Of a DNA stretch of 64,000 nt, positions 929 through 43,693 are shown piece by piece (positions within the stretch are counted from its first letter, which is position 1; the number at the start of each line of letters is the position of its first letter). Under the pieces are notes generated by a model. That model ran no database searches, had not been told where the DNA came from, and was given only the letters and a program-made list of their open reading frames with translations. Location of the stretch: positions 299,024 through 363,023 of the forward strand of contig JAIUOC010000003.1 of the NCBI GenBank assembly GCA_020161265.1. The letters run 5' to 3'. Origin of the DNA: Chloroflexota bacterium (GTDB lineage Bacteria > Chloroflexota > Chloroflexia > Chloroflexales > Herpetosiphonaceae). The position numbers and the translations under genes were made by a program.

Positions 929-2038
929 ATGCGAATTGTAGTTAAACTTGGCACGAGCGTTTTGACCGATGGAACCGACCGTTTACGTCGCCCGCGCATG
1001 GTCGATTTAGCTCGTCAGATGGCCCAATTACGTGAGGCTGGCCACGAAGTTGTCTTGGTTTCTTCAGGCGCAGTTCTGGCTGGTTGGGAGCGACTGGGCT
1101 TTCCCAAACGGCGGCGTGAGTTGACCCATAAACAGGCTTTGGCGGCAGTTGGGCAGGGCCGTTTGATGCATATTTATGGCCAATTATTTGAAATTTACGA
1201 TGTGCCGGTGGCTCAAACGCTGCTGACCCGCGCCGACCTGCGTGATCGAGTGCGCTATCTGAATGCGCGGGCCACCTTATTAACCTGCTTAGAAATTGGC
1301 GTATTACCAATTATCAATGAAAACGATGCAGTGGCGATTGATGAAATTCGCGTCGGCGATAACGACACACTTTCAGCCTTGGTTGCGAATTTGGTTGATG
1401 CCCAGTTGTTGGTTATTTTGAGCGATATTGCTGGCTTGTATAGCGCCGACCCGCGCCATAACCCGGAAGCAACCCTCATCGACGATGTTGCAGCAGTCAA
1501 TGAACAGGTTTATGCTTTGGCAGGAGCGGCCGGTTCGCATCGTGGCACTGGCGGAATGTTCACCAAAATTCAGGCTGCCGAATTGGCGACCCGCGCTGGC
1601 ACAACCATGGTGATTGCTGCTGGCAACGAGCCGAATGTGCTAGTGCGCCTGGTTGCTGGCGAGAGTGTGGGCACCCGCTTTCGGCCAGTCAGCACCCGCT
1701 TGGAAAGCCGCAAACGTTGGATTATGGCTGAACGAGTGCGCCAAGCCCATATTGCAGTTGATGCTGGTGCAGTGCAAGCCCTAACCCATCAAGGCCGTAG
1801 CCTTTTACCTGCTGGAATTGTGTCCGTTGAAGGTGAATGGCGACGCGGCCAAACCGTAGCGATTGTTGCACCCGACGGCCAAACGATCGCCTGTGGCTTA
1901 TGCCAATATGCTGCTCACGAAGTCGCCCAAATCAAAGGCTCGCGTACCAGCGACATCGAAAGTATTCTCGGCTACTCCTACGGCGCTGAAGTCATTCACC
2001 GCGATGATATGGTAGCCTTTGTTAAGGATGAAGGATGA
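929..2038 (+). CDS. proB: Glutamate 5-kinase
   Basis: N-terminus 'MRIVVKLGTSVLTDG', an amino-acid kinase fold, then a C-terminal PUA-like region. ATG at 929 is the preferred start over 908. Confidence 0.9.
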   Translation: MRIVVKLGTSVLTDGTDRLRRPRMVDLARQMAQLREAGHEVVLVSSGAVLAGWERLGFPKRRRELTHKQALAAVGQGRLMHIYGQLFEIYDVPVAQTLLTRADLRDRVRYLNARATLLTCLEIGVLPIINENDAVAIDEIRVGDNDTLSALVANLVDAQLLVILSDIAGLYSADPRHNPEATLIDDVAAVNEQVYALAGAAGSHRGTGGMFTKIQAAELATRAGTTMVIAAGNEPNVLVRLVAGESVGTRFRPVSTRLESRKRWIMAERVRQAHIAVDAGAVQALTHQGRSLLPAGIVSVEGEWRRGQTVAIVAPDGQTIACGLCQYAAHEVAQIKGSRTSDIESILGYSYGAEVIHRDDMVAFVKDEG

Positions 2039-2187
2039 GGGATGAATTATGAAGGAAGAGCCACGAAATGATCCTTCATAATTCTATGAGGTTGAATTAT
2101 TATTTTGGGATGCTGAAAACGTGTGAATGGTTGAGGGAATATTTCATCCTTTATCCCTCATCCTTCATCCTTTCATAAAGGGGTGTT

Positions 2188-4972: not shown

Positions 4973-5394
4973 CGCTCAATTCCTTTCTGCTGCTTAGCAT
5001 AAACCCTATACTATGCTATAGAGTCAAGCCCAAGTTTTTATTAAAATCAAAAGGCAGAAGGCAAAAATCAAAAAGTAGCAACAGGAAATTGGAATGCAGC
5101 TGTAACGCAGAGGCGCAGAGGGAAAATATGAATGATGAATATTAAACCGCCAAGGGCATGAAGAACGCGAAATGAGGCTATAGGCTATGGACTATCGACA
5201 TTTCTTGGTATTCCAATGCTGTAAATCCAATAGCCAATAGTCAGTAGCCTGTGCTTTCCCTCTCATGGCGCGGTTGCATTTGCGTGGGCGAAAGATAAAG
5301 CCTATGATATCGAACGCCAATGGCAATTTGCCGATGACGAAGCACAGAGTCATGGCGATGCTGCTTCGACGCTGATGTGGTATGGAGGATGTTC

Positions 5395-6658: not shown

Positions 6659-6880
6659 TCAATTGGTATAGAGAGCAGAACCTGCTATCCAGTGATCAGG
6701 TCTAGCAGAGGGCTGGCTGACTTTGAATTTCCCTGCAACCAGCGCCTCTACGCTAAAGCATTGATCTATGCAGGAGTACAAAGATTTATTTTGAGCCACA
6801 GATTGTTTAGATTCTCCCAATAGCCTAGAGCCAATTCCCCTGACCCCTATTTTGATTTTTGCCTTCTGCCTTTTGCCCTT

Positions 6881-12431: not shown

Positions 12432-13018
12432 GATTGGCTCTCCTCACGGGCAACCACCCGCCGACGGGTCAGCACGACTGTCCCGACTACTGCAATCAAG
12501 AGCAAAATTGAAATCACTTCAAAAGGCAAGAGATAGGTGCTGAAAAGTTTGGCGCTGATCGTGGTTGGTGCGCCAATGTTGGTTGCATCGGCCACCGGAG
12601 CATCGATTAATTTCGTGCCACGATAGGCCACATAGCCAATCTCGGCCAATAATGCGACACCCAAGACGAGGCCAGCCGGCTTTTGCCAGCCGATTTTCTC
12701 CTCGCCAAGCTCGGCATTTTCAGCGCCCAACAGCATGATCACGAACAGGAACAGCACCATAATCGCGCCAGCATAAACCGTCACTTGAACAGCACCGAGA
12801 AACGGCGCACGCAGCAAAAAATATAAAATGGCGACCGAGCAGAAATTCAAAATCAAAAACAGCGCACTATGCACTGCATTGCTGCTCAGCACCATTGCCA
12901 AGGCTGCCCCCACCGCCACAATGGCCGTGGTGATAAACAAAAATGTTTCCATGGACACTCCCAGATAAAGGATGAAGGATGAGGGATGAAATTCAAACCC
13001 CGTTGGCACGCCCTTCAC
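12428..13018 (-). CDS. nuoJ: NADH-quinone oxidoreductase subunit J
   Basis: 196-aa membrane protein whose end overlaps the nuoK start by 4 bp. Confidence 0.8.
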
Positions 13019-13131
13019 ACTTTGTACCGTTGGCTACCCTTAGCGATAAAGCAGAAGCTTGGGTGCTGAGCAATCAAATTCAGCCTGAACTAGCCCATCC
13101 TTCATACTTCATCCTTCATACTTCATACCTT

Positions 13132-13638: not shown

Positions 13639-13986
13639 TGGCGATTCCTTTCTCGGTGCGTGACTCCTATGGCGTTCACGCCAAAACCGCCACTATGCAT
13701 CAAGCGGCGGTGCAATGTCATTCGAATCGGTGCCGTCGCGGGCGCGTTTATTTTATCACAATCTCTTGATAAGCCAAACAGGGGGAATAAGGATGAAGGA
13801 TGAATTATGAGGGATGAAATTAAGAACATAGAACATAGGGCGATCGGCGTTTGGCTTTGGGCGATTGGCTATCGGAACGTTGTGTGGTATGACACTCATT
13901 CGCGATAGCCAATCGCCTATAGCCTATAGCCTTTTGTCACATCTTCGTGCGCTTCGTGGATCAAAATATCCCAAATCCTCGATGTT

Positions 13987-15195
13987 CTAGGCTAGAGTTT
14001 CTTGCTCATTCCAACCAGCAAAAGGATCATCGATTTGCCAAGTTGCGGCTGGTTGTTGCCATTCGTGATCGCTGACCAAACATGCATCCAACGCTTGTTG
14101 CAACCATTGTTGATCAAAATCTTGGCCAATAAAGACTAGTTCTTGGCGACGATCACCAACTTGCTCATCCCATAGGGCTTCAATTTCGGCACGTTCCTCG
14201 GCAGTTTCGGGCCATTCGCTCTGATCGCTATCGGCCCACCACTCGCCAGCTGGCTCAACACGGCAATTTTGGCCTGCTTGCGAGAGTAATCCAGCGGTTG
14301 TGGGCTGTGAAATTACCCAAAAGAAGCCTTTGGCGCGAATCACTCCAGGCCAATCGTTATTCACAAACTCCCAAAAACGTTGAGCTGCAAATGGCCGTCG
14401 AGCACGATACACCCAACTGCGAATGCCATATTCCTCGGTTTCGGGTGTATGTTCACCACGCAATTCGGCCAGTCAGCCAGGTGCAGCGCTCGCTTGATCA
14501 AAATCAAACAAGCCAGTATTCAGAATTTCGCTGAGTGGCACTTGACCATGCTGGGCATGAATAATCTTGGCCTGCGGATTGAGTTTATTTAGCAATTCGT
14601 GTAAATGAGTTAATTGTTCAGCACTGATTAAATCAGTTTTATTAATGATCAACACATTGCAAAACTCAATCTGATCGATCAATAAATCGACCAAGGTGCG
14701 CTCATCAGCCTCGTCAATTGCCAAATCACGGTCGCGCAAATCGTGGGCAGCATTGAAATCGTGCAAGAAATTGAGGGCATCAACCACCGTCACCATCGTA
14801 TCGAGTTGAGCAATTTCGCCCAAACTGAGGCCTGATTCATCTTCGAAGGTAAAGGTTTCGGCTACGGGCAATGGCTCCGAAATGCCTGTCGATTCGATCA
14901 ACAGATAATCGAAACGGCCAGCACGAGCCAACTTACCGACCTCAAGCAGCAGATCTTCACGTAAGGTACAGCAAATACAACCATTGCTTAACTCGATCAA
15001 TTGTTCTTCGACCCGATTGAGCGCAAGCTCGCCTTGACCTACCAACCGCGCATCGATATTAACTTCGCTCATATCGTTGACGATGACGGCGACCCGCAAA
15101 CCCTCGCGATTGGCCAAAATATGATTTAATAAGGTGGTTTTCCCCGCACCGAGAAACCCAGAAAGTACAGTTACAGGCAGCGGCAACTTCGACAT
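13987..15195 (-). pseudogene. COG0523/CobW-family G3E GTPase (metallochaperone) interrupted by an in-frame TGA. The N-terminal GTPase part is 14473-15195 and the CobW_C part is 13987-14463.
   Basis: P-loop '[11 protein letters not shown]' and a 'CICCTL' metal motif are in the upstream ORF. The downstream ORF, in the same frame, carries a CobW_C-like 'EEYGIRSWVYRARRPF'. The two are separated only by TGA at 14473-14475 plus 3 sense codons. Confidence 0.55.
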
Positions 15196-15340: not shown

Positions 15341-15416
15341 TCCCTGATAGCTCAGTTGGTAGAGCAATTGACTGTTAATCAATGGGTCCTAGGTTCGAGT
15401 CCTAGTCAGGGAGCCA
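15341..15416 (+). tRNA. tRNA-Asn (anticodon GTT)
   Basis: Cloverleaf read by hand: acceptor tccctga/tcaggga, D-arm gctcagttggtagagc, anticodon loop cuGUUaa, T-arm ggttcgagtcc, encoded CCA. Confidence 0.85.
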
Positions 15417-15436
15417 CTTCTTTTTACAATTGATAA

Positions 15437-15512
15437 TCCCTGATAGCTCAGTTGGTAGAGCGGTTGACTGTTAATCAGCATGTCCTAGGTTCGAGTCCTA
15501 GTCAGGGAGCCA
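15437..15512 (+). tRNA. tRNA-Asn (anticodon GTT), second tandem copy
   Basis: Near-identical to the first copy, differing only in the anticodon stem and variable loop. Encoded CCA. Confidence 0.85.
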
Positions 15513-15833: not shown

Positions 15834-16100
15834 CTAGTTAGTCTGCTGAAGTTGGGCCAGTTCTACTTTTTTAGGATAAAAAAGTCCAACGGGTTCATTA
15901 TCTGGCACTTGTACCAGTAAATCACCAGGTGAAACTTCAAGAATTGAGCAAATCTTATCTAAGATTGGCAGGTCTACGCGTGTCGTATAACCACGATACA
16001 AACCTTTTGCAGTGTTATACGAGATATCAGCTCGATCTGCCAGATCTTGAATAGATAACCCTTTTTCTTCTGCAAATCTTCCCACGTTTAATACGATCAT
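15834..16100 (-). CDS. XRE (Cro/CI-type) HTH transcriptional regulator
   Basis: 88 aa with an HTH_3-like 'LSIQDLADRADISYNTAKGLYRG'. Confidence 0.8.
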   Translation of the reverse strand: MIVLNVGRFAEEKGLSIQDLADRADISYNTAKGLYRGYTTRVDLPILDKICSILEVSPGDLLVQVPDNEPVGLFYPKKVELAQLQQTN

Positions 16101-16176
16101 AAAGACCCCCTGTAACTTGGCCGTAAGTCTATTAGATCTGTTTTATTTTATCAACTTTTATTCTTTTCGACTTGTT

Positions 16177-16250
16177 GCCATTAGGTTGCTCCATTTTATA
16201 ATTTCAACTTTTCGACTTGTTGAAATTATAAAATGGAGCAACCTAATGGC
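16177..16250. promoter_or_regulatory. Perfect 32-bp inverted repeat (arms 16177-16208 and 16219-16250, 10-nt spacer) overlapping the RBS and ATG of the downstream gene. Candidate operator.
   Basis: gccattaggttgctccattttataatttcaac is the exact reverse complement of gttgaaattataaaatggagcaacctaatggc. A direct 13-mer ttttcgacttgtt precedes each arm. Confidence 0.5.
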
Positions 16251-16743
16251 ACACACAAAAGCGGTCACCTATAACTTCAAGAATCGGGATTTCGATGCGT
16301 CCGTGAACGGCGAGTACATTGGCTCATTCCCAACCGATCTGGATGCACGAATGGCCTGCAATCGTTTAGTGTTGGAATTGATTGAGTTGGATAATCGGGC
16401 TGTTGAGGAAGCTGAAGAAGTAATGGCCATTGGCGTGGTTGAACCCGTTGCCGAAGCTAGCGCTGAGGTTGCTTTGTTTGAAGTCGTCGATCTGATTCCC
16501 ATGCCTGTGGTTACCGCCACGACCTATGCCAACACCCCTATTGATGCGCTTGCCCGCACCATGGTCATTTTGAGCCGCAACTGGCAACGGGCGATTCGCG
16601 CAGGTCGGTATACTGATGCCGAGCGGATTGAAGCTCATGAACAGGCCGTCCGCAGCCAATTCCGCTCCCTCTCCTGTCCTGCATTGCCACCCACGTCTGC
16701 TACTCAGCAGTGCCCAACGACCAGTCGCCAGATTAACTATTAA
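16246..16743 (+). CDS. Hypothetical protein (islet cargo)
   Basis: ORF with GGAG RBS 9 nt upstream of ATG 16246. No recognisable motif. Confidence 0.5.
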   Translation: MAHTKAVTYNFKNRDFDASVNGEYIGSFPTDLDARMACNRLVLELIELDNRAVEEAEEVMAIGVVEPVAEASAEVALFEVVDLIPMPVVTATTYANTPIDALARTMVILSRNWQRAIRAGRYTDAERIEAHEQAVRSQFRSLSCPALPPTSATQQCPTTSRQINY

Positions 16744-16833
16744 ACCCTTCACTGCTCTTCAAAGCAGCAAAGGGCCTCACATGACCGAGGTGCAGACTGC
16801 AACCTAGCCTCGGTCACGAAAGGATGATACCTG

Positions 16834-17151
16834 ATGTCACAGACCCATGTCAATCACGACCGCTGCCAACGCTTGGCGCGTGCCAGTGCGATTGTTCAAC
16901 TGGCTACTATTATTCAGGAAGAAGAAGGCCTCGACGACAACACCGCCTACACGCTGGCTGAACACGAACTCGATGCCATCGCTGTGACCGAAGCGGCATG
17001 GAGCGAACCGCAACCCCTCGCCATGCTTCGTATCCTGCCAACAGCGTGGGGGATCGTGCTGGTGCGCAACGGTTCGCGCGTGGTCGTACATCGTGCCGAT
17101 ATTCCGGCGGTGCTGGAATCCTTGACCCGTTGGGCTGCTGTATCCTATTAA
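16834..17151 (+). CDS. Hypothetical protein
   Basis: 105-aa ORF with no motif. Confidence 0.4.
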   Translation: MSQTHVNHDRCQRLARASAIVQLATIIQEEEGLDDNTAYTLAEHELDAIAVTEAAWSEPQPLAMLRILPTAWGIVLVRNGSRVVVHRADIPAVLESLTRWAAVSY

Positions 17152-17174
17152 TAGATATAGCGAGGACTATTGTT

Positions 17175-17534
17175 ATGGCTGATACTGCATCACCGCTCGC
17201 AAGCATCAAAGTGGAGCACCAGATTCACTTCACCCTTGATGGCTTTCCTTGCACCACCTCGGTGGCAGGTGCGACCGCCGATCAACTCAAAGTCGTGATT
17301 GATCGCCTCAAAGCGATCGGAGCACAACCACCCACGACACACCCAGCTCAACCAACCCAACCAGTCGCCGCTGCTGCACCACCCAGTGCTCCCGCCCAAC
17401 GCCTCTGCCCAACCCATGGTTCGCCCTTGCAGTTACGCCAAGGCACGCGACGCGGTGGCAAGCCCTACAAATTTTGGAGCTGCAACCATACCGATGCGGA
17501 TGGCAACTGGTGTGATCATACCGAGAAGCCGTAG
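17175..17534 (+). CDS. Hypothetical protein with a C-terminal zinc-ribbon-like motif
   Basis: 'CPTHGSPL...FWSCNHTDADGNWC' resembles a small C4/C3H zinc ribbon. Pro/Ala-rich linker. Confidence 0.4.
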   Translation: MADTASPLASIKVEHQIHFTLDGFPCTTSVAGATADQLKVVIDRLKAIGAQPPTTHPAQPTQPVAAAAPPSAPAQRLCPTHGSPLQLRQGTRRGGKPYKFWSCNHTDADGNWCDHTEKP

Positions 17535-17696
17535 TGGAGGGTATTCATGGAATTAACCGCTGCGGCGATTCGTCGCTATGTGACCACCCGCTTGGCCACG
17601 CACATTGCTGACATACACGCGCTCCCTAGTCCACATCCTGAATGGGATGTTGGGTATCTTGATCAGTAAGTCTCTAGGAATAGCAGATGTCACTCC

Positions 17697-18002
17697 CTAA
17701 CTCTGAGCGTCATCCAGCAGTATTCTGCTCCATTCCAGAAGCTGTTGGCGACCAGATTCGCCGACCAACTTCTCGCTGATTGCTAAGCGAACAACCTGCC
17801 GCCGAACCGCTTCAAGGACAACATCATGATAGTGGTTCACGATCCATTTGTGCCAGTCCTCGGGTGTGGTCTGATTATCAGCAAGGTGGATAAGAAAGGC
17901 GGCAAATTCCTGGCGGTACGATGTGGACATAAACAGCCTCCAGGGCGGCACCGCCACCCAGTTCTGGGGATATGACACCCGCAGCGTCGGGAGGGGAGCC
18001 AT
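17697..18002 (-). CDS. Hypothetical protein
   Basis: ORF only. The start is uncertain. Confidence 0.3.
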   Translation of the reverse strand: MAPLPTLRVSYPQNWVAVPPWRLFMSTSYRQEFAAFLIHLADNQTTPEDWHKWIVNHYHDVVLEAVRRQVVRLAISEKLVGESGRQQLLEWSRILLDDAQS

Positions 18003-18725
18003 TGTTCGGTATGCTTGGACGGACCACCAACCAAGCTTTACTGCCCAAGGAGACTCCCCTCATGAACACGTTGCCAGCCTTGACCAGTCAACGTATTTTA
18101 AATGATACCATGGCCCTGCTCCAGACCTATATCCCACTTCAAGCCACAGGCTATCGCTGCCAGACAGCCTATGGGACGGCCTTGAGCGATCTGGCAGCAT
18201 AGATACGAGAGACCCTCGATGAACCCCTGCCGCCCCTCGTTGATCGCGAAGCCGATGGGCTGGCTATCGCGATTGACTGACTGATGATGGATGACCAGCC
18301 AGCAGTTCAAATCAGGCTGTTGGCGAATGTTTTTTTAGCGCGAAACGGTTATGATAATGGATATTGTCGCACATGGTCGGTATCGACCTGCTACCCCATA
18401 TGATGTTTAACGCGACACGTTCGCACCCCGTACTCAATTCCATGCCCCAGGCACCGCCGTTAAATCCACCCCAACCCCCGCACGATGGCCAGCAGAAGGA
18501 GTTTCCAGCTGTGGCCAAGCAACTGCGCGGACGATGGCACAACATCGCCAAACTGCACTAGCCATGTGACCCAAGAGTTGATTGGGTTGCAACTCCTCAG
18601 CACTGGCATACGTACACACCGCAGTGATACCAAGATTCCGTGTTGCACCAATCCAACTGGAGTGTCTGTCAGGTGAAAACGATACGTAGGCCCCAACAAA
18701 TAATCTTATTAGAGGAGAGACCCCT

Positions 18726-19676
18726 ATGCATACCAGACGGCTGGCCCTGTTAGCGAGCTTGTGTGCCGTGTTGCTTGGCTTTGCGGTGGCTAAACAACCT
18801 GAAGGAACACGCGCCAAGGCATTATTAACACCAACCCCAACGCCACTTCGCTCGGAATTAATTCTGAGCGGCCCGACCGAAGTTTACGTTGGTGAACTGT
18901 TTTTGATCATGATTCAATATGTCAATATTGGTGTGCCTTCCACCACAATCACCCTGAGTCCGAACAATCTGGCGCACTTTGATCCACCGATGATGATGCC
19001 GTGTAAGTCCAATGAACATATAACAGGGTGTCGCGCAATCACATTACGAGCAACGGCTGGGGGACTATTAAAAATTTCTGCATCGGCGACAGGCGAAGTA
19101 CCGATTGCTGGTGGTGGTTGGGCTTGGGGCAGTGCTCAGGAACGGAATCCATTGATGATCAATGTTGTTGATTCCAATGTGACGGCTACCGCAACAGCGA
19201 CTAACACGGCAACACCATGCCCAACTACCGTGGCGATGCGTGATAGCGCTTGTATCGGAACCCCAACGATCACGCCAACTAGTGGAAGTCCAACGGTCAC
19301 ACCACTGGTTAAAGAGTTGATTTTGAGTGCGCCACCGTTGGTGAATGTTGGCGATGCATTCAGTTTGACGATTCAGTATGTCAATATTGGGGTACCCTCT
19401 ACCGGAATTACCCTGAACCCAATCGGCACTGTCCAGTTTGATCCACCATTGACGATGCCCTGTACGTACAATCAACATCCAACGGGATGTCGCACGATTG
19501 GGTTGCGAGCGGTTGCCCCTGGTACGATTGAGATTGACGCTGGGGCGACTGGTGAAGTGCCAATCGCTGGTGGCGGCTGGGCTTGGGGTAGTGCCCAGGC
19601 ACGGAATTCTATTAATGTGCAAGTCCGTAGTGTTTTAGCCTATAAAACCTTCATTCCCTATGCCAAAGTTCAATAA
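18726..19676 (+). CDS. Secreted protein with two tandem ~100-aa internal repeats
   Basis: Signal peptide 'MHTRRLALLASLCAVLLGFAVA'. The block 'ELILS..IQYVNIGVPST..ITL.P......FDPP..MPC......TGCR.I.LRA.A.G...I.A.ATGEVPIAGGGWAWGSAQ.RN' occurs twice. Confidence 0.6.
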   Translation: MHTRRLALLASLCAVLLGFAVAKQPEGTRAKALLTPTPTPLRSELILSGPTEVYVGELFLIMIQYVNIGVPSTTITLSPNNLAHFDPPMMMPCKSNEHITGCRAITLRATAGGLLKISASATGEVPIAGGGWAWGSAQERNPLMINVVDSNVTATATATNTATPCPTTVAMRDSACIGTPTITPTSGSPTVTPLVKELILSAPPLVNVGDAFSLTIQYVNIGVPSTGITLNPIGTVQFDPPLTMPCTYNQHPTGCRTIGLRAVAPGTIEIDAGATGEVPIAGGGWAWGSAQARNSINVQVRSVLAYKTFIPYAKVQ

Positions 19677-20152: not shown

Positions 20153-23100
20153 CTATCGATTTATAACATATGGAATATAGACATAATTAATTGGATCGAC
20201 TGGAATGACGTAGATTTGCGTATCGGTGAGAATCGCTGGCTGTGGAATACCCGTCCGATCACTGGCTTGGGCTGCACCTAAAGCGAAGTTTAGGCTGCCA
20301 GGGTTGGTAGCACGTAAGGTAATTGTGGCTAGTTGTCCATTGCCTGATGCTCCAACGGGGCTAGTACCGATGCTATAGGCTGCAAAATTAAGCGTTCCCC
20401 TGACCAGATCGATCTGCGGCCCGATCGGATAAAATTGACGACCACTGCTACTTGGATAGCCATCAATGGTAGCGTTGAGGATTTCGAGCTTGCTTGGGCT
20501 AAATGGTAGTGTGAACTCGAAAGAACCAAGATCATTGACATCACTAATTACTACTCCAATGGTAAATGGGACTCCAACTTGAATTGGCGCTTTGGTTGGC
20601 TGTAAACTAAATGTGGTGGGCCATGGCGTTGCAGTTGATGTCAAGGTTGGCCGTGGAGCAGAACACTGAGTTCCCCAACGCACCGCTACTCTCTGAATGT
20701 CGATAATATCGATATCGCCATCAGCATCAATATCATAAAGTGGCGCATAGAGTGGGTCGCCGAGGTGTGTATTCCAGCGGTAGGAGATTCGCTGGATGTC
20801 GATGATATCAACATCACCATCAAGATCAAAATCGCCAAGGCAGTTGGCAACCTGAATCGATCCATTGCGAGTTGCGACTGTAATTGCCTGACCATTGATA
20901 TTGCTGACCTGAACATTACTGAAGGTGAGCGGTGCTGTGCCAACCGCCCGAGGACGCAACCGGATATGGGCAAGCGAACCCTGGCCACTCGCGCCTGCTG
21001 GATTCGCCCCAAGACTAAAGCCGCCAAAGGTTATCGTCCCTGCATTTGGATTGATCGTCGGCCCAACGGGGGTAAAGTTGCGGCCAGTACTAGCAGGAAA
21101 TGCCCCCATAGTAACTTGCTCAACCGTTACAAGCGCTGGGCTATACGCTAGCGTAAACTGGAACGAGCCAAGTTGCTGAATTTGCGAGATTGCCACTGTG
21201 GCCGTAATTGCTTGCTCTAAACCTCCAGATAATGCTGGTGGCGACAGATAGACCAGTGGTTGATTACTAGGTGGCGCAAGCACAGTAATATAGTTTGGCT
21301 TAACAATTGTGTTGGAGCCACCAGGGCCATCGACGAGCAAGCGCACTGCATAGGTGCCTGGTTGGGTGTAGGTATGGATTGGATTTGGAATGCTGTCCTC
21401 GCCGCCATCACCAAAATCCCAACGTCTACTAGCGATTGTTCCACTTGATTGATCGCTGAAGCTGACGGTAAGCGGCGCGACACCAGTCAGTGGAGTTGCC
21501 CCAAAGTCTGGCGTTGGTGGCAATTGATCCGCCATCAAGGTACGTTCCTCAAGGGCAATTTCGTTAATAAATGCCCCAGTTGTGCCATTTGTGCGCACTA
21601 TGCTGACGATGATGCTCTCATCACTAACATAGGCACTCTGGGGGATATCAAGGACAGGGCGCTGAACTTGGAAATTACCAGTATTAATTGGTGACCCTAG
21701 CTCAATGCCATCAATCTGGACTTTTTGAATCCGCTCGCTTCCGTCACGCTGCCAAAAACTCGTATGCAGTTGATAGCGTCGATCACGCTTGAGTCCATCG
21801 AAGCGATAGCGCAATGTAGCATCACTTTGATCGATTCGAACACTCTGATAGGGCAGGGTTCCCCAGATACTATTGCGAACTCCATCGAGCGCACCAAAGC
21901 TTAATCCACTGCTTGGGGTGGTTCCTGGATAACCAACCTCGGTAAGTGAACCAGCATCAATATAACGATAATCGATTGGATGCAAGCTCACATAGGCAAC
22001 AACTGCACCGTCAATACCTGGCGCTTCTATGCTAACCTCAATTTTACGATCAGCGTATAATGCTGGATCAATTCGCGTTGAAAGCCGTTGAATTTGGCCA
22101 TTGGCAAGGCTTACTGGCCCAACAATAGGATTACCATCAACGTTAATCACTTCCTGTCGGCCAACACCATCGCACTCAAAGAGCGTAATATCAAGATGAT
22201 AGAACCGTCCAGGCTGAAGTTGATCAAACTGATAGCGTACCTGCCCATCGGGATCGATTCGAACAGTTTGGTGTGGTGCTGAACCACAACTACTGATCGT
22301 ATCAGGCTCTCCGATATCAATCACTCCATAGCCAAGGCTCGGCGTATAGGTTGCCTCGCTAGCTGCGCCACTATCCAGATGGATTGGGCCATTGATGCCT
22401 ACGGCAATCGGTTGCCACAACGTGTTGTTGGCTTCGTTGGATTCAGATATCTCGGCTTGGCTATCGATGCTTGCAGTTAATTGATACAAACCAAACTGGG
22501 TTGGAGTCCATGGAAGTACAAGGGTTGTGGTGCTGGCAGCAGTTAGCATGGGGATGCTTTGGCTGCTAATGATCGCACCTGTTTGGCCCGTTGCGCCTAC
22601 CATTAAGCGTAGATCATGCCTACCTGCGGTTGTTTGACCAGCATTGTGAACTTGAATTGTTACGCTGATCGGCTGGCCAATCAATGGCTCTGAATCAGAA
22701 AACTGAATCCGGCTAACCTGAAGATCGGCGCGGGTTCGAATCGGTAGGGTTGCTGTTACCACATTATTGGTCTCGTTAATCTCTGCTACCCGATCGAATG
22801 GGTCTACCACGACCCGAACCGGAATTGTTCCTTGAAAACCTTCGGTTGGGAATGGAATCGATACTAAGGCATCGCCACCTGCCGGAATATTGGCAACAAA
22901 TCGACTGCCTAGGTACCAATCGCCAAAAATTGGTGATTTGGCGTAGACACTGGTAATAAATCCGCCGGTGGCTAGATTGCTTGGGTTGCGAATGCGGGCT
23001 TGGAGCTGAGCCTGCATGCCCTCAGTTGGGTTACTAGGATTTAAACTTAGCTCATGGGCTGCCAAACCTAGCTCGGTAGCACCGCCTGGGGTTGCAACGA

Positions 23101-26100
23101 GATTGAGCATATGCAGTTGTCCACTGGTATTGAGTGAAATTCGAATGGGTACGCTGACCATCCCTTGGGCATCAGGTGTTGCCGATGCCATGAAACTTGT
23201 CAGGCCAGCAGCGAGGTTGGTGGTTGAGAGAGTGGTTGGCAAGGTTGGCGAGTTGTTATAGCTCCACTCCCAATTGCCATTATTGCCAATATCGAGATTG
23301 ATTTGCAAGAAAGCGGCGTTCGATCTGGTTATGAGCAGATCGAGAGTTGTAGTGAGATAGCGAGCTTTTGGCAAACTAACGTGGATAACCTGTTCGCCAG
23401 CGCTGCTGAATTGGATTGTTCGCCCACTTTGCACATGGTAGCGTTGACGATCACGGAATGCTGTTGGGATATAGAGATTAATTTGGTGTGGGCTACCAGC
23501 AACTTTTTCGATGCTAAATGCCAGCATGCCAAAATGAGCAGTCGCGGTTGCGCCTGCAACGAGGTTAACGTTCACTGAGCTAGCACTCGTTGCCGCATAT
23601 CCATTGGGTAGGGTTGCATTAACGGTATAGGCAGCTGCCGTAAGATTGGTAAAACTATAAGCGCCTTGGGCATCGGTAACGCTGGTTTGTCCGGTTCCGC
23701 TCAGCGCAACATTAATGCCGGCAAGGCCATTCTCCCCAGGATTTTGGATTCCATTTTGATTAAGATCATGGAATACAATTCCGCTAATGCTTGCTTGCGG
23801 AATGAGCGCAAGATTAACCGTGGTTGTCGTGTTTGATTGAACCGTTACGCTGTTGGTACACGAATTACTACAAGCGTATCCAGCTTTTGGGGTAACAGTG
23901 AGGCTATAGGTTGCTGGCGGCACGTTGTTAAAGTTATAGTCGCCATTCGCATTCGTTGTAGCCGTCCCAACTGTATTTAAATTGATGTTAATCGTTGCCA
24001 ATCCTGCTTCACCAGGATCACGCACGCCATTTGCATTATTATCACTATAGACGCTGCCCGCAAGTGTGCCATAACAACCAAGCTGGGCTTGATTAGGTGC
24101 TGGAACGATATTCTCAATCCCAGTTACTGTATTGCAATACTCAAGCCGAATTGAGCCATGGCCACCAGCACCACCAATAAATCGTCCGCTTGGGCTGCCT
24201 GGTGGCACTAGTTGTGGTGCGCCGAGTGCGTTGATCCCATTCGCCGCTACCGATATCGTATCAGCGCGAAGATACATTTGCCCACCGCCGCCAGAGCCAG
24301 CAGCCACACGCCGATTGGTGCCATCATCGGACATAGTGCCATTTGCTTGCTGCCCATTGGCCCGAATCTGGCCAGTGATTGTGAGTTGACGGGCAAAAAT
24401 AAACACCAATCCACCGCCGCGTCCAGCCTGCGAATAGCCAGCGCCAGGGTTGATGCTGGTAGCACTCCCACCGCCACCGCCACCAAAATAGAGTCGTGTG
24501 CCATCGGTTGTACAGTGACCAATGCCACCGCGACCCCATGTACTGCCGCCAATATGTTCACCATCGCCTCCGGCTGCACAACCAGCGCCACCGCCGCCAC
24601 CACCAATCGCATCGGCAGCACCACCGCCTTGGGCCGATGGCGTGATGTTGGGGGTTTGGCAATAATGCGTGCTATTATTCGACGTGCAGATAATCCCTTC
24701 ACCCTGCCACTGATCAGTTTGATAACCATTGCCACTATCTCCACCACGAAAGCCGCTGGCATCGCCATTGATCAGCCCGCCGATTGTGGCATTATTTTGA
24801 CACATAAAGGCGATAATCCCACCAACGTGACCATTCCAAGCCAGCAAGGGTGTGATTGTGCCGCTGACTGGGCAATCGCTGTATTGTGGCACGCGCATAA
24901 TTTGGGCTTGGGCACGGTAGTCAATCGAGCTATAACTATGGCGCAAGGGTTGAGCTAAAGCAAAGGTTCCACTCCCAGTAACATCGCCAACTGCGGTATT
25001 GAGTTCCCACAAACCAGCAATTGAAGGGTCACCGCGAGTCTGATGAATCAATACTCGATCGCCGGGATTAATGCGCGAAACTGCATGCTGATCGACAATC
25101 GTAATCGCGGTTGAGCCAGCATTGCCACTGGCTATCCCAATACCAACGCCATTACTGGTATCAAGATTGCCATTTGCTGGCATGATGCCATCGCGACCAT
25201 CACCATAGCGATCGGTTAGATTCGTGGGCTGAGGTGTTGCCAGCGCAAGGCGAGCCTGCCGGAGGTTAACAACAATTCCCTGTAATAGCCCACGGCCAAT
25301 CCCAAGCAGGGTTTGTTGGCTTTGATCATAGAGACGGAGTGGTGTGACATGCAGTGCATCGCTAACAATTGTATCAACATAGGAAATGAGCTCACGTTGA
25401 GATCGCGAACCAGTTACCACAACATACTCATCCCAAGGCCGATATGGGCTGATCGGGAGCGCTTGGGCTGGCGTGGTTGGAGCTACGATGACACCCTGAA
25501 CTTGCAGGTTGTGGCTCGGACGTTGAGGATCACTAGTCCGTAGTTGAATGGTGCGACTGAACGGCCCAACCGGGATATAATAGGTGTCCAGAAGTACCTC
25601 AAGTATGCCCATATCACCAGCCGCAATCGTTGTGGTGGGCCGTGATTGGCTTGTAACCGGTATTCCTGAGACTTCCACATGGGCTTGGAATTGCCCAATG
25701 GTATCGGTATTACAGCCGAGACAGTTGTTGGTTGCTAAATACAGTCGCCCACTTGTGGAGCTGGCTGCGCGATAGCTGGTTCCTGCCATAAATGGCGTAT
25801 TATTGCCAACTCGGGCAATCAGGCTGAATTGACTTGCTCCAGGGGCTGTCCATCCGCTAGCTGCGTCTACTCCGTTGCCATCAGGCCCAAAGCAATTTGT
25901 ACTACTGTCATAACAGATATTGCCAGTTGCCTGAATACCAATTGCATCCCCATGACGAACCTCAAGGCCTGTATCCATCCAGCTAATTTCACCAGAAATT
26001 GCCAGATCACGTCGCCCTCCAGCGCCTAAAAGGGTGGTGCGCAAGCCAGCACGGCCCTCGTTGGGCAAGCCAAAGTTATGGCGAAGTTGACTGCCTTGGG

Positions 26101-29100
26101 TTGCCGTCCCAAAATTCCAAACCGATTCAGCGGTATTGATTGCAAATATTGGCTGCGGGTCGGCTTGGAAGGTATCGAGCATTCGCGCTGAGTTTCCAAG
26201 GATATTGCCCTGATGATCGGTTAGAAAGGCAATAACACCATAACGATGGTTGGGATTAAATGCTGGATTGAAGTCGGCAGCTTGCCACGTGATATTAACC
26301 AAATTTGGCCCTGGTTGGAGATTGACTGAACGAGCCTCTTCGCGAACGACTCCACCTTGACCATTCAGATCAATGAATTCAAGATACAGTCGTGCATTAA
26401 TAAAGCTCTCTACTGCCGGAATTTGGGCCAACAAAGTGGTAGTTTGTTGTAAGGCTGGCGTAAATGGTGCGGTTGCGATGATCTCAACACCCGCACTATC
26501 ATGCAGCATTTGGCCGCTGTAGGGTGCAAGGTTTGCTTGAGGATGACTTAACTCAGACGTGGTAACCAAGCGATGATGACCTTGTGGATCGTTGTAGGCG
26601 AGAATTACTAAGGGTTTTGTATATGGCTCACGGTTGATTCGATAGCTAAAGGCATCATTGGGCGGAGTTGCTACAATCTTAAAGGTTTGGTTATGTTGAA
26701 CTGTGCCGCTCATCAGCGCCAGTTCAAGCCCTTGGCCCCCGACACCTAGGCGTTGGGGTGATGCATAGCCTGCACCAAAGTTGAGGCTGCCAGTATTGCC
26801 TATGCCATCATTCCAGTGTAATGCCCATGTTCCGCTGCCAACGTCGCAGCCTAAGGGAGCCGAACATTGAACGGTAAAGAGATATTCACGTTCGTTTGCA
26901 CCAACATAATAGCCAGCAGTTGTGGGAAGCGCCGTACCCGACCATGAACTGGAGAGGCTAGGTTGATGGATCGTACTGCCAACCACGACTTGATGGAATG
27001 CGCGAACGCGGCCTGTACCACCAACAGTATTATTTTGGATCGTCACCGAATCATTTGGCGCAACCATAATCGCCTGAACACTATAGGCATCGTATAGCCC
27101 AGTGTTGAGCAGCGATAGCGTACTTGTAACAACATTGCCAACCCGCGTCGAATGGGTTGCCGCAAGCAGTTCAGGCTTTGGAAATGAGCTAGCATTGTGC
27201 GGATCAGTTTGGAGCCGAAGCTCATCACTATCACTATAGCCATCAAGATCACTATCTTGATTAAAGCGAAATAATGCCCCAGCAGCTGGTGCGGCTGCCA
27301 TATCTTGAAAACCCAAATCGCCATTGCCAAGCCCGCCAGAGTAAATATTCCACCACTCGGCAGCTGAAAGTGCATGTTGACACCACAGGATTGCTCCAAC
27401 TCGACGTGGTAAACGACACCAACTAGGGCTATCAGTGCGCCGTTCAGGAGTCCAAACCGCTATTAATTGACCATTCGCATCGGTTGTTGTGGGAAAGTAG
27501 CGAGCTAATACATCAAAGGCTGTTTCATCACCCCAGGTTGGAATCAAGAAATCCTCGATTAGCTCATCGTTATCGGCAGTTCCATCTTCAATTGCAATCG
27601 TCATGCTTGCATTGAGTGCATCCGCATAAAACAACTCATCAATGCCATAAGTATAGTCTTCGGCCACGATTCGAATTGGCGAACCAAGATCGATCGCACG
27701 TAATTGGTCGAGGGTTAGTGCAATTCGACGAGACGTGTATTGATGCGACTCACCTGGCATGAAGTTGTGAAACTTGCCATCGCCGCCGAGATCTGGCCCA
27801 ACAAAATAGGTTGTTGCTGGAATCGGACTGTCACCGATATATACGTTGAAAGCGAGATTGCCAATTTCGCGGGCATATTCGCTGCCATTATTGCTCACGC
27901 GATAGCTAAACCAGAGTTCAGCGGCATGAGCCGAATTGACCGCAACAGCATTGCTCCACGATTCACCCGACGAAAATGCTTGACCATTCGTAACGGTATG
28001 TTCTTTATATTGAGTATGGGTGGTTGTTTGCGCACCACCGCGTGATTGCCCTTTGGCGCTCGTCGTTGTTTGGGTGGGAACCTGCTGTGGGTAACTGAAT
28101 TGATAATATTGCTCGACAACGGCGCGAGCATCACTCGTGGCTCCACTATGCAGGTGGTTACCAACACTTCGGCCTTGGCTTATTTGTGATGTGCGTTGAC
28201 TATTGACGGTTTGTTGGGAGCTGGCAGGGGTTCCAACTTTGCTGCTACAGCCAGGCACACATTGATTCGCCTGCTGCTTGAGTTGTTTAATCTCAGTTTG
28301 AAGTTGGCGTAAGGTTTGAGCCGATTGTTGGGCTTCATTACGATTGACAACATAGTCGCCATAGGCAGTTGCAAACCCAATTGTGCCTACAGCAATAGCC
28401 GACGCAAGGGTAATCCCAGCACAAAGTGGTGCTGTTGCCAAACAAAGCCCTGCCGCAGTTACACTGATTGCCCCACTCGTAATTGCTAGCCCAATCTTTT
28501 GGCGATCCCAGGCTTCGGTGGTGGGAGCCCGGGGCAATATACCGAATGTTGGTGGCAAATAACGGCCAGCAAGCGGAATGGTCGTTGCAATCGATTGCTC
28601 CTCCCAGGCGTTCCAGTTTACTTCATTGGCAATGCTCGAACTCGTGCCTTCGGTACTTGCCGTGCTATAAAGCCGCTCGGTTCCCGTAATAATGGTGTGA
28701 TCAGTGCGAATTTCGGTGACGGTTTGCACTCGCAGCGAGTTTGGTACTAAATCAATCGCTGGGACTGGGAAGGCTGCCATTAATGGGTGATTGGCTGGAG
28801 TTTTAACCCATGCAGGCATTTCGGCAAAGATAATGCCCCAATCCTCGTTGCGAGGTAATGCGCCATAGCCACAAAATCCACCACTGCCAGGGCAATAGGT
28901 GCTGCCAAAAAGCTCTTGTCCATCATCAAATTTATCGCGGTCGGTTGATTCGCGATTCATGTTCAGCCCCAAATCCCAACGCTCAGCGAGATCGGGGATG
29001 GAATCTAAATCGTCGTCACGACAGTTTGCAAGCTGGCTAGGCCAGCCAGCGAATGGTTTACCATTTGCTGGTGGGCTGCTTCGTTCGTGGCGCATCCAGC

Positions 29101-29969: not shown

Positions 29970-30008
29970 AAAAAGCAGTCATAAAAAGCAGTCATAAAAA
30001 GCAGTCAT
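29970..30008 (+). repeat. 3 perfect tandem copies of the 13-mer aaaaagcagtcat abutting the ATG cluster of the STAND regulator gene
   Basis: Direct reading gives 29970-29982, 29983-29995 and 29996-30008, all identical. Confidence 0.6.
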
Positions 30009-30013
30009 ATGCA

Positions 30014-32819: not shown

Positions 32820-35800
32820 TTATCGATTAATCAGCGGCAGATAGATCGGCTGGCTTTGGTTGATCATAAGATTATCGAGCAGCCAGCCACGATCTGATCC
32901 GTCGCGGTCAACGGTCATGCGCAACCGTAAACGAATGGTTTGATTCTGAAATGAACGTAGGGAGATTCTGACTGGTTTCCAATGAGGAGTTGACCATTCA
33001 TCGCTGCTTGGGGTTGCTGGGCGTAGGCCATGTGCGCCGCCGCCAGTGAAATCGGCGATGATCTGCCAGGTTAGGCCATTATCGGTTGAAACTTCCACAC
33101 TCCCATGATCATCGCCTGCTGCGGTTCGGGCAAACACGTAATCGTGCTCGAAGGAAAGCACTGGATGCTGACAATTAGCTAGGTTAATTGGCTCGTGGAA
33201 GGTTAGGGTACTTGTCAGATATTGATTTGGTGCGACGGCTTGGGCATAGGCATGGCCCGGGCTATCATCAAGGGCAACCTCGCCACTCGCTAAGCGCGAT
33301 GTAGCCCAAGTTCCTTGAATTTGCCATTTGCCCAATTGGCTATTAAATGTTTCAGCAAAACATGCAGGTGTTGGTGGGTAAAGGGCGAGTGCTGGTGCTG
33401 GTACGCTTGACCCATCACCATTGGTTAAGCTCGTTCGGTAATAACCTGGGGCAAGTGCAGCGGTTAGGGTTATGCTGCCACTGCTGGAGTTATGCAATGT
33501 AACGCTTAAACTGATCGTGCTGGTTAGCGTTTGCAAGTGAAGTGTTGCTGGTGCCAGTAAGTTGTTGCCGCTTACCAGCAATGTGTTGGTAAGCCCACTG
33601 GTGATCATGGTTGGTGTTAAACTTTGAACGCTTGGCTGCGAATGCCCACCTATTAATGTATAGATGCCTGGCTTTGGCGCATGAGCCGCGGCAACATTAT
33701 AGGTTGTGTTCAAAACGGTCGATAAACGCTCCCAATAGGTTCCATTCCAAAAGCCAATCGCTAAATCTGGCTCTTCAACATTGGCTGTAATCAGATCATA
33801 ACCAAGATATTGAAAACTAACTGAGCCTGAAATTGGTTGGGTTTGTTGGGCGGTAACGAGTTGATAGCCTTGCCCCACGTTTACCACCCCTGCTGGTAAA
33901 GCCGGAAGTTCGGCCATCTCTTGAATCGCATAAAATTGGCCAACTTCAAAGGTCGCTTTGGTATAGAAGGTCATCTGTCCATCGGGAGATAGTAACGGTG
34001 CACCACCCAACCGATAGTAACCGCCACCACCGCGATAGTAACCGCCACCACCGCGATAGTAACCGCCACCACCGCGATAGTAGCCTGGGTTTCCGCCAAT
34101 TGAGTAGGCGATAAGTGTTTCGCGGCGTGGGTTTGTCTCACTTGCTGGCTCTTCAACCCATACTTGAATATGGCCACTCATCGAGGGATATTGGCTTACC
34201 AAGCTTCCACGGTAGCCATCGCCAAAATGCTCAAGCAGTACTGGTGAACCAGCCGATCCATCATCAGGAAAGAGCCGTGCTTGTAAACTTAAGCCTGGTT
34301 GAATTCCAGTTACCTGAAGTTTGAGGGTTGTGCTGGTAACTGGCGAGAGCGTTACGAGTGGTTTCCAAGCAGCATCATGCTTAAGCGTAATATATTGATC
34401 ATCGATGCTCAACACTTCACAACCAAAGTGTTGTGTGCCACGATCAAAAAGACAAAACCGATCGCCCGGCTGTGCCCCTCGGCCTAAGATGCGGTTTTGA
34501 TTGTTGACAGTACTGCCCAGAGGCATAATCGTATCGTCAGTTAGAGCTGGGGTCTGCTGGTTTGTAATCAAGAATCCGCGAGCTTTGGCTGAACTGGTTG
34601 TATTACCAGCATATTCTAAGTATAAGGTAGGATCAACCAAAGGAGTGGTAGGAGTCAAGGGGTCAACGATTTGCACATTCGTGAAGACGAAAGGCATTTG
34701 TTGTGGCCCAGCCAGCGGCATAGTCGGAGTTATCAGTGCCGGATACCAAAGCCGAAGTGTTTCCCATTCAGTTCGTTTTAACTCCTGCGCTGCGAGGGTT
34801 TCCTGACAGTGTGCTTGCCACACCTCAGGATCAAAGACAAATTCGGTATTTGTTGGAAGATACACATCACCCATCGCGCTTCCCGCGCATGTATCCACCG
34901 GAACCAAGAGCTGATCTGCTTGGATTCCAAGGTAAGTGTCTTCCATGAAAAATAAATAATGGCTTAATTCATGGGCAAGAATAACCGACCAATCAGTGCT
35001 AATATCTTCGCCAGGAATTCCATTGCGATTCCAGTGGGAACCAATATGCACTTGTCCTATATCGTAGATCACCTCAGGATGTTCAAGATCAAGGGTTTTG
35101 GTTAAGACGATTCCGCCCTCGCTGGCGAAAGGTCGGAGCCGATTTGTTGCATGGATCACAACATCGGCATAATTGAGTTGCTCTCCATTCTGGTAGACGC
35201 TTATTTTTCCTAAGGCTACCTGGCCATTAGTAAAGTCATAGAGATAGCGTGAAGCGCGATGGAGATCTGACTCAAGTTTTTGCAGGTAGGTGGGGGAGTG
35301 TGATGCATCCCATTCGAGCGCAATTTTCAAGTTAAAGAGCAATAATGGATGTTCTGGTCGCGCAATCAACTCTTGCGTGCCGGGCGTGGTGATCGTCCAA
35401 CCATCCAAGCCCATCTCAGTAGGAACCCCATTTGTATGATAAAGGCTGTAGGCATAGGTTGTTGTAATTGGCACAAGGGCGATTAAGCGATCATCTGGCC
35501 GTAATTCGCTTTGGCCTTGCAAGTAGCCTTGACCATCGGTAATAAATGGCGCACTGCCCTGACTTGCTGCCATAGGCCGCCCACCGCCGCTTTGACCTGC
35601 GCCTAGTCGGTAGACGATTGCTCCTGCCGCAGCGATTGGTGGTTGCTCGGCGGTGGCATGCAGCACCCGCACGCCTGTGCCACGCACTCGGAATGGAAAT
35701 GAGTTCGTTGTATAGGCTCCATAACGATAGCTACCAGCAGTACTATGCGCCTGAGGCAGTACACTAGGATACATTCGAAGCTGAACCGCCATTGTATCGT

Positions 35801-43413: not shown

Positions 43414-43693
43414 TGTATGGACTCCTTTTGATCTCAAGGATGCGACTTTGCACGCATCAACACACGGTTCCCACTTCTATTGTAGCAGAAGTTGGGCCAT
43501 GCTTGATGCACAATCTTGGGCACATTTGGAATCATGGGGATCGGGGATCGGTTGCTGGGGGTCAGGGATCAGAGATCAGGGATCAGAAATACTGAAACCG
43601 CGAAGAACGCGAAGATCGCGAAGGCTGGAGATCGGAAATCAAACAGCTTTAGGTTGATCAGGCAACCACTGCAAATCAAAAATTGAACTTTAT

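Follow-up and report, generated by a model that had tools for sequence, protein, structure and literature searches.

Tandem heptamer repeats arranged as inverted pairs in the proB and nuoI–nuoJ intergenic gaps of a Herpetosiphonaceae genome

Repeats built from seven-nucleotide units have been recognized in bacterial intergenic DNA for decades, as far as the Calothrix heptanucleotides cited in PMC4692102 attest. They are over-represented in many bacteria, and their function and origin are an open question (PMC2670836, PMC4692102, PMC4679880). For the short tandemly repeated repetitive (STRR) sequences of filamentous cyanobacteria, an influence of the hupS–hupL intergenic hairpins on the stability of the transcript or on translational coupling has been proposed (PMC2670836), and translational regulation has been suggested for heptamer repeats of the TAACTGA and GGGAATC types (PMC4679880, PMC4692102). 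Only for one structure of this sort has a mechanism been resolved by experiment, the hmw1A hairpin of Haemophilus influenzae, where a heptameric simple sequence repeat (SSR) in the hmw 5′-untranslated region (UTR) forms one arm of a long hairpin and cleavage by RNase III alters expression (PMC12721329). Here we analyze a 64,000-nucleotide stretch of DNA from a Chloroflexota bacterium of the family Herpetosiphonaceae (GenBank assembly GCA_020161265.1, contig JAIUOC010000003.1, positions 299,024 to 363,023; hereafter the window), in which arrays of the heptamer GGATGAR lie as inverted pairs in the gap between proB and a phosphatase gene and in the gap between nuoI and nuoJ. Very probably, these elements belong to a set of tandem-heptamer intergenic repeats in Herpetosiphon (Chloroflexota) that is the counterpart of the cyanobacterial STRR sequences.

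GGATGAR arrays in two operon gaps

The initial annotation of the window had reported a dispersed 21-mer in inverted pairs. The repeat is real and so arranged, at positions shifted by 3–10 nt from those first given. The 21-mer GGATGAAGGATGAGGGATGAA matches exactly on the forward strand at 2026–2046 (previously 2029–2049) and 12970–12990 (previously 12960–12980), and variants with up to three mismatches lie on the reverse strand at 2143–2170 and 13101–13128 and on the forward strand at 13784–13818. At this threshold, the window holds 8 matches, compared with 0.00 across 100 dinucleotide shuffles; the 13-mer GGATGARGGATGA, with up to two mismatches, has 22 matches against 2.26 expected, 17 of them inside the three GGATGAR places. 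Tandem Repeats Finder assigns a period of 7 and 3.9–4.7 copies to all five GGATGAR arrays, the 21-mer being three tandem heptamer units, a substructure that the initial annotation had not described. The unit is GGATGAA or GGATGAG (GGATGAR), with a purine-rich form (AAGGATG)n and its complement (TTCATCC)n.

At two of the three GGATGAR loci, (AAGGATG)n and (TTCATCC)n bracket an unrelated interior of 60–110 nt, such that the whole co-directional gap is predicted from its sequence to form one hairpin cassette with a stem of 26–30 bp. The paired arms are 30 nt long and 90% complementary in the proB–phosphatase gap (2024–2053/2143–2172, 89-nt spacer) and 26 nt long and 85% complementary in the nuoI–nuoJ gap (12965–12990/13101–13126, 110-nt spacer). 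RNA fold predictions give −67.7 kcal/mol (z −6.7) for the former gap and −58.6 kcal/mol (z −2.3) for the latter, whereas an arm folded by itself forms no pairs (0 kcal/mol). The two spacers are unrelated to each other, and the GGATGAR copies of the window have the heptamer arms in common, with no common unit or interior. Pfam matches agree with the gene names assigned earlier: proB (AA_kinase and PUA), the phosphatase (His_Phos_1), NuoJ and NuoI. Both paired elements lie between co-directional genes, in proB–phosphatase–proA and nuoIJKLMN clusters whose co-transcription is taken from gene order. The phosphatase (encoded at 2188–2883) has an identical counterpart in a “Chloroflexi bacterium” metagenome-assembled genome (MAG) and is 95% identical to that of Herpetosiphon geysericola, and NuoI is identical to NuoI of H. 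aurantiacus DSM 785.

In the proB–phosphatase element, on the forward strand, the 5′ purine-rich arm (2024–2056) reads AAGGATG/AAGGATG/AGGGATG/AATTATG/AAGGA, and proB ends inside it, with its last five codons (VKDEG) and the TGA stop codon at 2036–2038 (end of the open reading frame (ORF), 2038). The inner end of this arm, GAATTATGAAGGA, pairs with a short pyrimidine array, TCCTTCATAATTC, in a nested hairpin at 2044–2084 whose 13-bp stem (2044–2056/2072–2084), noted previously, is 100% paired around a 15-nt loop and appears in the minimum free energy structure. It is followed by an interior (2085–2142) that is common neither to the other copies nor to close relatives, and by the 3′ pyrimidine-rich arm of the TTCATCC type (2143–2172), which adjoins an AAAGGGG Shine–Dalgarno sequence and ends 15 nt upstream of the phosphatase start codon (2188). 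The nuoI–nuoJ element runs on the reverse strand. On the nuo sense strand, its 5′ purine arm, AAAAGGUAUGAAGUAUGAAGGAUGAAGUAUGAAGGAUG (13096–13131), directly follows the nuoI stop codon (13134–13132), and its 3′ pyrimidine arm, UUCAUCCCUCAUCCUUCAUCCUUUAUC (12964–12990), adjoins a GGGAG Shine–Dalgarno sequence about 10 nt before the nuoJ start (12955). As in proB, which gains five codons, arrays of this kind lengthen or shorten annotated ORFs, and spurious ORFs arise on the pyrimidine strand.

The third GGATGAR locus is an unpaired array, a singlet, at 13784–13818 on the forward strand, between a cobW-like gene and the nuoI promoter region. We find no complementary partner for it; it presents the pyrimidine form on the nuo sense strand, and its position is also occupied in other species (loci L138, 1274–1298; L139, 1265–1295; L142, 1196–1226). 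The initial annotation had not described it as unpartnered, nor had it noted that other heptamer families build similar structures.

Heptamer periodicity is a property of the window as a whole. It contains eight period-7 arrays, compared with 0.1 in shuffles and with none at periods 8, 10, 11 and 12, and all eight fall in the non-coding 13% of the sequence, one overlapping the last five proB codons. Besides GGATGAR, the recurrent families are AAGGCAR/AAGTCAR/AAATCAA, AGARCAT, GGCTATR, GGGATCA and GGGGTCA, and at least five families (A–E) recur across the window and Herpetosiphon loci as single arrays or inverted pairs, often nested. A closing stem is found in only 3 of the 22 window gaps of at least 70 bp and is therefore not a general property of every gap. 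Nor is the GGATGAR motif confined to the window, which would have refuted the initial annotation: among the matches listed by a scan of one genome per species, at least eight further loci, overlapping neither each other nor the window, carry it in five Herpetosiphon genomes. The arrays agree with STRR sequences and heptameric intergenic SSRs in their head-to-tail 7-bp unit, non-coding location, multiple families and intra-operon hairpins; they differ in their host, Herpetosiphon of the Chloroflexota, and in their heptamers, which are not those originally described. The membership is thus in the STRR/heptameric intergenic SSR kind and not in the named cyanobacterial families (PMC2670836, PMC4692102). 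Rfam at gathering score matches only two tRNAs in the window and nothing in 13 element-carrying loci, with sub-threshold, miRNA-like chance matches at 1900–2300, and in our literature search GGATGAAGGATGA was not found as a bacterial repeat, nor was any link between Herpetosiphon and heptamer repeats.

Conservation, exchange and distribution

The same 179-bp nuoI–nuoJ cassette is kept in five species and two metagenome contigs. Its mean pairwise difference is 0.008 in the 5′ arm and 0.012 in the 3′ arm, compared with 0.095 in the interior and with 0.134 (nuoI) and 0.158 (nuoJ) at third codon positions, codon positions 1 and 2 giving 0.005–0.010. Conservation of the arms thus exceeds that of synonymous sites more than 10-fold and matches that of non-synonymous sites, and in the five species they are invariant in unit number and even in their mismatches. 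The interior (12991–13095, reverse strand) is orthologous across Herpetosiphon species, with 88–99% identity, and its 3′ half is well conserved. This half holds a block at 12991–13045 (reverse strand), GGGTAGCCAACGGTWCAAAGTGTGAAGGGCGTGCCAACGGGG, which contains two GCCAACGG direct repeats, has neither an Rfam match nor a hit in the metagenome scan and is near-invariant across species, unlike the 5′ half, which varies. A candidate small protein in this interior (MKDGL..., 21–23 codons) was rejected, being frameshifted in H. gulosus and having non-conservative substitutions.

A different picture emerges in the lineage closest to the window (nuoI 98.4% and nuoJ 98.7% identical), where the gap is filled by an unrelated 225-bp cassette with GGCAAAA/GTCAGAA arms. 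This cassette begins exactly at the stop codon and stops about 6 nt short of the Shine–Dalgarno sequence, and divergence of the flanks is not raised. No donor copies of swapped interiors were found among the element-carrying sequences compared, and two metagenome scans returned 0 matches to them, a result of no evidential weight because the collection scanned lacks the JGI samples known to carry the sequence.

Turnover of arm families is also seen in the orthologous proB gaps, six of seven of which contain a closing stem (z −3.1 to −7.4), for which three distinct kinds of arm are used: GGATGAR (family A) in the window, H. giganteus and H. gulosus; GGCAGAA/GTCAAAA (family B) in H. geysericola and H. 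aurantiacus; and GGGCATAGG-type arms in a relative of 57% identity. In species with a different arm family, proB ends at a TAA five codons earlier. The arm family is incongruent with the tree of the flanking genes, since the window and H. aurantiacus are 96% identical and carry A and B, respectively, and H. geysericola and H. giganteus have 95% identical flanks and yet have B and A. Even where the flanks are 96% identical, the interiors bear no relation to each other. In the H. giganteus locus (L125, 2900–3010), we also observe a tandem duplication of about 61 bp comprising the 3′ arm, the Shine–Dalgarno sequence and the first phosphatase codons.

The opposite exchange is found downstream of a MerR-family regulator gene, where the window carries B and H. 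gulosus carries A. A B-family array in the window (AAATCAA/AAGGCAG/AAGGCAA) lies at 5043–5075 on the forward strand, with GGATGAR arrays at the same site in H. gulosus and in an aurantiacus-like contig. Lineage-wide homogenization to one heptamer family was considered and rejected, because A and B switch in opposite directions at the two sites.

Beyond Herpetosiphon, a scan that took one genome per species listed at least 120 matches, and the counts of phyla, arm order and gene context given here are among the matches listed. GGATGAR arrays occur in Acidobacteria, Planctomycetes, Verrucomicrobia, cyanobacteria, Armatimonadota and others, and in more than 120 viral contigs with genes for terminase, portal and connector proteins. 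For arrays that have a complementary array no more than 300 nt away, the order is purine arm first in 58 versus 0 cases in genomes and 39 versus 2 in viral contigs; these totals of 97 versus 2 are array counts, in which one element may count once per strand, and correspond to 70 unique paired elements. Gene calls in loci outside the window are crude longest-ORF calls, making the context counts approximate. Across 18 co-directional elements, the median distance is 2.5 nt between the stop codon and the outer end of the 5′ arm and 22.5 nt between the end of the 3′ arm and the start codon that follows it. Unpaired arrays in co-directional gaps favor the purine form on the sense strand (35 versus 13 antisense). 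In 47 cases such arrays link the stop codon of a long ORF to the next ORF, with the first start codon within the array in 19 of these, which fits the provision of TGA, ATG and an AAGGA Shine–Dalgarno sequence by (AAGGATG)n in all frames.

The same AT-to-CG change (TCATCCYTCCGCCYTCATCC) is present in 50 distinct 3′ arms. In the 13 genome loci inspected it falls in the second unit from the outer end, producing a conserved 2×2 internal loop, and this identical change in the second 3′-arm unit marks a sub-family found in Acidobacteria, Planctomycetes, Verrucomicrobia and phages. It may point to common descent or to a recognition site. In one viral contig (L284, 7034–7100 and 8633–8692), both arms carry the GGCGGA/TCCGCC unit, which closes the internal loop. 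Several phage contigs (e.g., L159, L178, L186 and L203) have CACTGAC, GCAGAAT, CTCTCGA and CCCCAAC arrays adjoining the GGATGAR arrays, so that these phages, too, are characterized by more than one heptamer family.

Possible roles and alternative explanations

Our preferred reading, which we put forward tentatively, is that the element acts post-transcriptionally as a transcribed, gap-closing stem, in processing, stability or coupling. What the data show is the sequence, arrangement, predicted fold, conservation and turnover of the elements; the functional steps that follow are inferred, in part by analogy with known hairpins. The cassette would be transcribed within the proB–phosphatase–proA and nuoIJKLMN mRNAs, and the base of its stem would bring the upstream stop codon, which lies inside the 5′ arm or no more than 5 nt from it, to the downstream ribosome-binding site, 10–15 nt past the 3′ arm. 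With 26–30 bp, the stem would be long enough to serve as a substrate for a double-strand-specific RNase and could block exonucleases, and in this way it would determine how stable, and how strongly translated, the cistrons on either side are relative to each other. Translation may also be coupled, in that a ribosome that terminates within the 5′ arm would open the base of the stem. In favor of this reading are the conserved nuoI–nuoJ arms, the closing stems that orthologous proB gaps build from different arm families, the placing of the arms next to stop and start codons, and the unpaired arrays, whose sense bias and start codons suggest a link of the purine form with translation.

Several observations weigh against such a role. 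The nuoI–nuoJ stem shows no compensatory change, its 27 pairs being invariant, and yields no covariation signal because its arms never vary; this invariance could also reflect homogenization within and between arrays instead of selection. The Shine–Dalgarno sequence of the downstream gene is sequestered in the proB fold and free in the nuoJ fold. Many Herpetosiphon GGATGAR copies are unpaired, and paired elements occupy co-directional, convergent and divergent gaps in the ratio 25:5:5, close to the background frequency. Neither the comparison of sense with antisense folding in 17 co-directional elements from many phyla (7 versus 10, p 0.6) nor the orientation of the asymmetric TCCGCC variant relative to gene direction (6 versus 7) gives a signal.

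The main rival is turnover at the DNA level, according to which the element is a selfish or recombination-driven DNA cassette, its arms terminal inverted repeats or hot spots of recombination or repair; cassettes would be inserted, replaced or converted as DNA and tolerated only between genes, with no host function. This is possible, though on balance unlikely. It would account for the replacement of the whole nuoI–nuoJ cassette by an unrelated one between flanks of 98.4–98.7% identity, for the incongruence of proB arm families with the flanking-gene tree and the unrelated interiors there, for the substitution of heptamer families in place downstream of MerR, for folding that lacks strand asymmetry, and for the presence of arrays in many phyla and in genuine phage genomes; moreover, purine-first polarity (97 versus 2) would be expected of a terminal inverted repeat whose binding sites are directional. 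The flanks, however, show no visible target-site duplications, none of the relatives compared has an empty site, and copies in the same genome have no common interior, and unit number varies. No transposase recurs among 1087 clustered ORFs neighboring about 260 arrays; the clusters consist solely of ABC transporters and of phage proteins, namely terminase, portal, connector and amidase. The nuoI–nuoJ arms and unit number, fixed in five species, are also unlike a decaying parasite. A role as an RNA stem and turnover as DNA would be compatible, by analogy with REPINs (doublets of repetitive extragenic palindromic (REP) sequences that form hairpins).

A more speculative proposal, which we regard as a long shot, is that (AAGGATG)n serves as frame-independent intercistronic punctuation, spread among phages and at least six bacterial phyla, that its paired form, always purine arm first, is a stem bridging stop and start codons that makes the downstream gene depend on the upstream one for translation, and that cassettes are exchanged by heptamer- or hairpin-specific recombination. 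Because 7 equals 1 modulo 3, a run of three units places TGA and ATG in all frames, and each ATG has an AAGGA Shine–Dalgarno sequence 6 nt upstream.

It is also improbable, if slightly less remote than what follows, that the arrays are sites for a protein each monomer of which reads about 7 nt of single-stranded RNA or DNA (cold-shock proteins, ribosomal protein S1 or CsrA-like proteins), with the complementary arm serving solely to mask or unmask them. AAGGAUG presumably resembles both the GGA-centered CsrA site and the Shine–Dalgarno sequence. The strict 7-nt register, the conservation at the sequence level, including the conserved nuoI–nuoJ mismatches, and the abundance of unpaired arrays would fit such sites; S1, Csp and Csr proteins have been proposed as binders of TAACTGA heptamers, and CspB binds heptamer repeats with one protein per heptamer (PMC4679880). 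Against this, at least five unrelated heptamer families occupy the same positions and substitute for one another, no candidate protein emerged, and the predicted fold of paired copies would bury the sites in the stem.

An interpretation as intrinsic transcription terminators or attenuators is very unlikely. The stems are stable, TTT follows some 3′ arms, and an inverted pair of GGGGTCA-type arrays at 46395–46474 (duplex −46.3 kcal/mol, z −4.5) closes the gap between convergent genes at 46389–46481. Terminator and promoter scans, however, give nothing beyond chance at both paired loci, where no terminator is predicted; the stems are A/T-rich heptamers without a U-tract; and at both loci the downstream genes of the operon depend on read-through.

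The initial annotation likened the repeats to REP sequences and bacterial interspersed mosaic elements (BIMEs) and called for a search for a REP-associated tyrosine transposase (RAYT), by which a classical REP/REPIN would be mobilized. As a functional analogy the label is reasonable, the arrays being extragenic, dispersed and hairpin-forming, placed between genes presumed to be co-transcribed, present as inverted doublets alongside singlets, and persistent at orthologous sites with occasional turnover; as a statement of membership it is wrong, and we give that possibility very little credence. A REP unit is a 20–60-bp imperfect palindrome (PMC3116915) that ends in a GTAG or CGTC tag (PMC3733652), whereas the present arms are non-palindromic with a tandem 7-mer substructure, the tag is absent at the arm ends of the sequences examined, and the spacers are variable and unrelated between copies, in contrast to the fixed spacer of REPINs (PMC3116915). 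Neither a Y1/RAYT nor any other transposase was found in the 40 of 46 crude window ORFs that were scanned, and no Y1 transposase was found among the neighbors of the about 260 arrays elsewhere. Assignment to miniature inverted-repeat transposable elements (MITEs) fails as well: inverted ends are present, but the flanks show no target-site duplication and the interiors are unrelated, and the two paired window copies and the third array share arms only, which excludes a single MITE family.

Least credible is neutral slippage with an accidental inverted arrangement. Polymerase slippage is a possible reason for the general excess of heptameric SSRs in bacterial intergenic DNA (PMC4692102), but here neither unit number nor sequence changes across 13–16% synonymous divergence, arm order is 97 versus 2, the same few families recur, and both arms change family together.

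Other features of the window and comparison with known systems

The window holds further heptamer arrays. Next to the singlet, at 13823–13946, lie AGAACAT ×2.3 (13823–13838) and an inverted GGCGATT/GGCTATR pair (13831–13874/13903–13946; 44 nt, 73% complementary). GGCTATR arrays form an inverted pair at 5176–5249 (5176–5197/5227–5249), and a B-family array in pyrimidine form (TTTTGAT/TTTTGCC/TTCTGCC) lies at 6850–6878 on the forward strand. Upstream of a superoxide dismutase gene is a GGGGATC/GGGATCA array (43536–43586, forward strand), adjoined at 43599–43623 by a 9-mer repeat, CGCGAAGAA (×2.8); a related sequence, GAAGAACGCGAAATG, is found at 5159–5173 in the gap downstream of the MerR-family regulator gene.

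The cobW-like GTPase gene beside the singlet (13987–15195, reverse strand) is split by one in-frame stop at about 14473–14475 (…AAPG*LAEL…), either a nonsense mutation or a MAG assembly error; in other Herpetosiphon species it encodes a single protein of 398–402 aa. Two tandem tRNA-Asn(GTT) genes lie inside a 96-bp repeat of 92% identity at 15341–15512. The region after them includes a Cro/C1-type helix-turn-helix gene (15834–16100), which adjoins a perfect 33-bp inverted repeat with a 10-nt loop (16176–16251) accompanied by a 15-nt direct repeat, CTTTTCGACTTGTTG, and ORFs from 16117 to 19676 that have no Pfam match; it may be an integrated element or an operator. Two ORFs are very large, at 20153–29701 (3183 aa) and 32820–38393 (1858 aa), the latter with a perfect 21-bp ×3.4 tandem repeat at 34012–34082, and a divergent intergenic region holds a perfect 13-bp ×3.1 tandem repeat, AAAAAGCAGTCAT (29970–30009). 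A type III-B CRISPR–Cas (Cmr) module spans 49108–57076, with Cas10/Cmr2 (49108–50949), Cmr5 (54840–55310), three RAMP proteins (52447–53877, 53855–54829 and 55307–56155) and a CARF-domain protein (56222–57076); within it, a 1.5-kb stretch (50950–52446) has no ORF of at least 80 aa.

For the heptamer repeats themselves, the locus offers a clean test case in essential operons, with conserved nuoI–nuoJ arms set against a whole-cassette swap in the sister lineage, and the near-absolute arm order across phyla and phages is a rule for any mechanism to explain. If the stems do control processing or coupling, operon regulation in Chloroflexota and several soil phyla would include a layer that is missing from current annotation; if instead the cassettes are mobile, they would represent a miniature element of a new type, one for which no enzyme is known.

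The elements resemble the STRR sequences of filamentous cyanobacteria in having 7-bp tandem units, a strictly intergenic location, several families per genome and intra-operon hairpins (PMC2670836). They differ from them in phylum (Chloroflexota) and in their heptamers (GGATGAR, AAGGCAR/AAGTCAR, AGARCAT and GGCTATR), and arm conservation far above that of synonymous sites, cassette swaps and the strict purine-first order, all described here, were not found reported for STRR sequences in the literature searched. With REP, REPIN and BIME elements they have in common an extragenic, dispersed location, inverted hairpin doublets and singlets, orthologous persistence and proposed roles in mRNA stability (PMC3116915, PMC3733652); they are unlike them in that we found no palindromic unit, tag or RAYT, the unit being a tandem 7-mer and the interiors variable and unrelated.

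As at hmw1A, a heptamer array serves as the arm of a long imperfect hairpin near a start codon (PMC12721329), the hairpin here being predicted. In the hmw feature, the pyrimidine arm is 5′, its partner is a non-repetitive G-rich stretch, the length is phase-variable and the location is the 5′-UTR (PMC12721329). Here, in contrast, both arms are arrays, the purine arm is 5′, unit number is fixed at nuoI–nuoJ and the element lies between cistrons. As to processing of the hmw type by RNase III, it is only the length of the imperfect stem, 26–30 bp as read from the DNA, that would fit.

The intercistronic RNase III sites of phage T7 early mRNA are long imperfect stems, some with an internal loop, and their cleavage leaves a protective 3′ hairpin. 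GGATGAR hairpins likewise occur between phage structural genes; the two have no sequence relation, and cleavage here is hypothetical. The TAACTGA repeats of Beggiatoaceae, cyanobacteria and Bacteroidetes (PMC4679880) and the GGGAATC repeats of Xanthomonas (PMC4692102) are comparable as intergenic heptamer arrays of patchy distribution across phyla, near start codons, with stop codons in the forward orientation and sometimes in inverted pairs. Those repeats are mostly direct arrays just upstream of start codons, whereas here the paired, gap-closing form is prominent, and the GGATGAR heptamer, unlike theirs, carries a Shine–Dalgarno-like AAGGA together with ATG and TGA.

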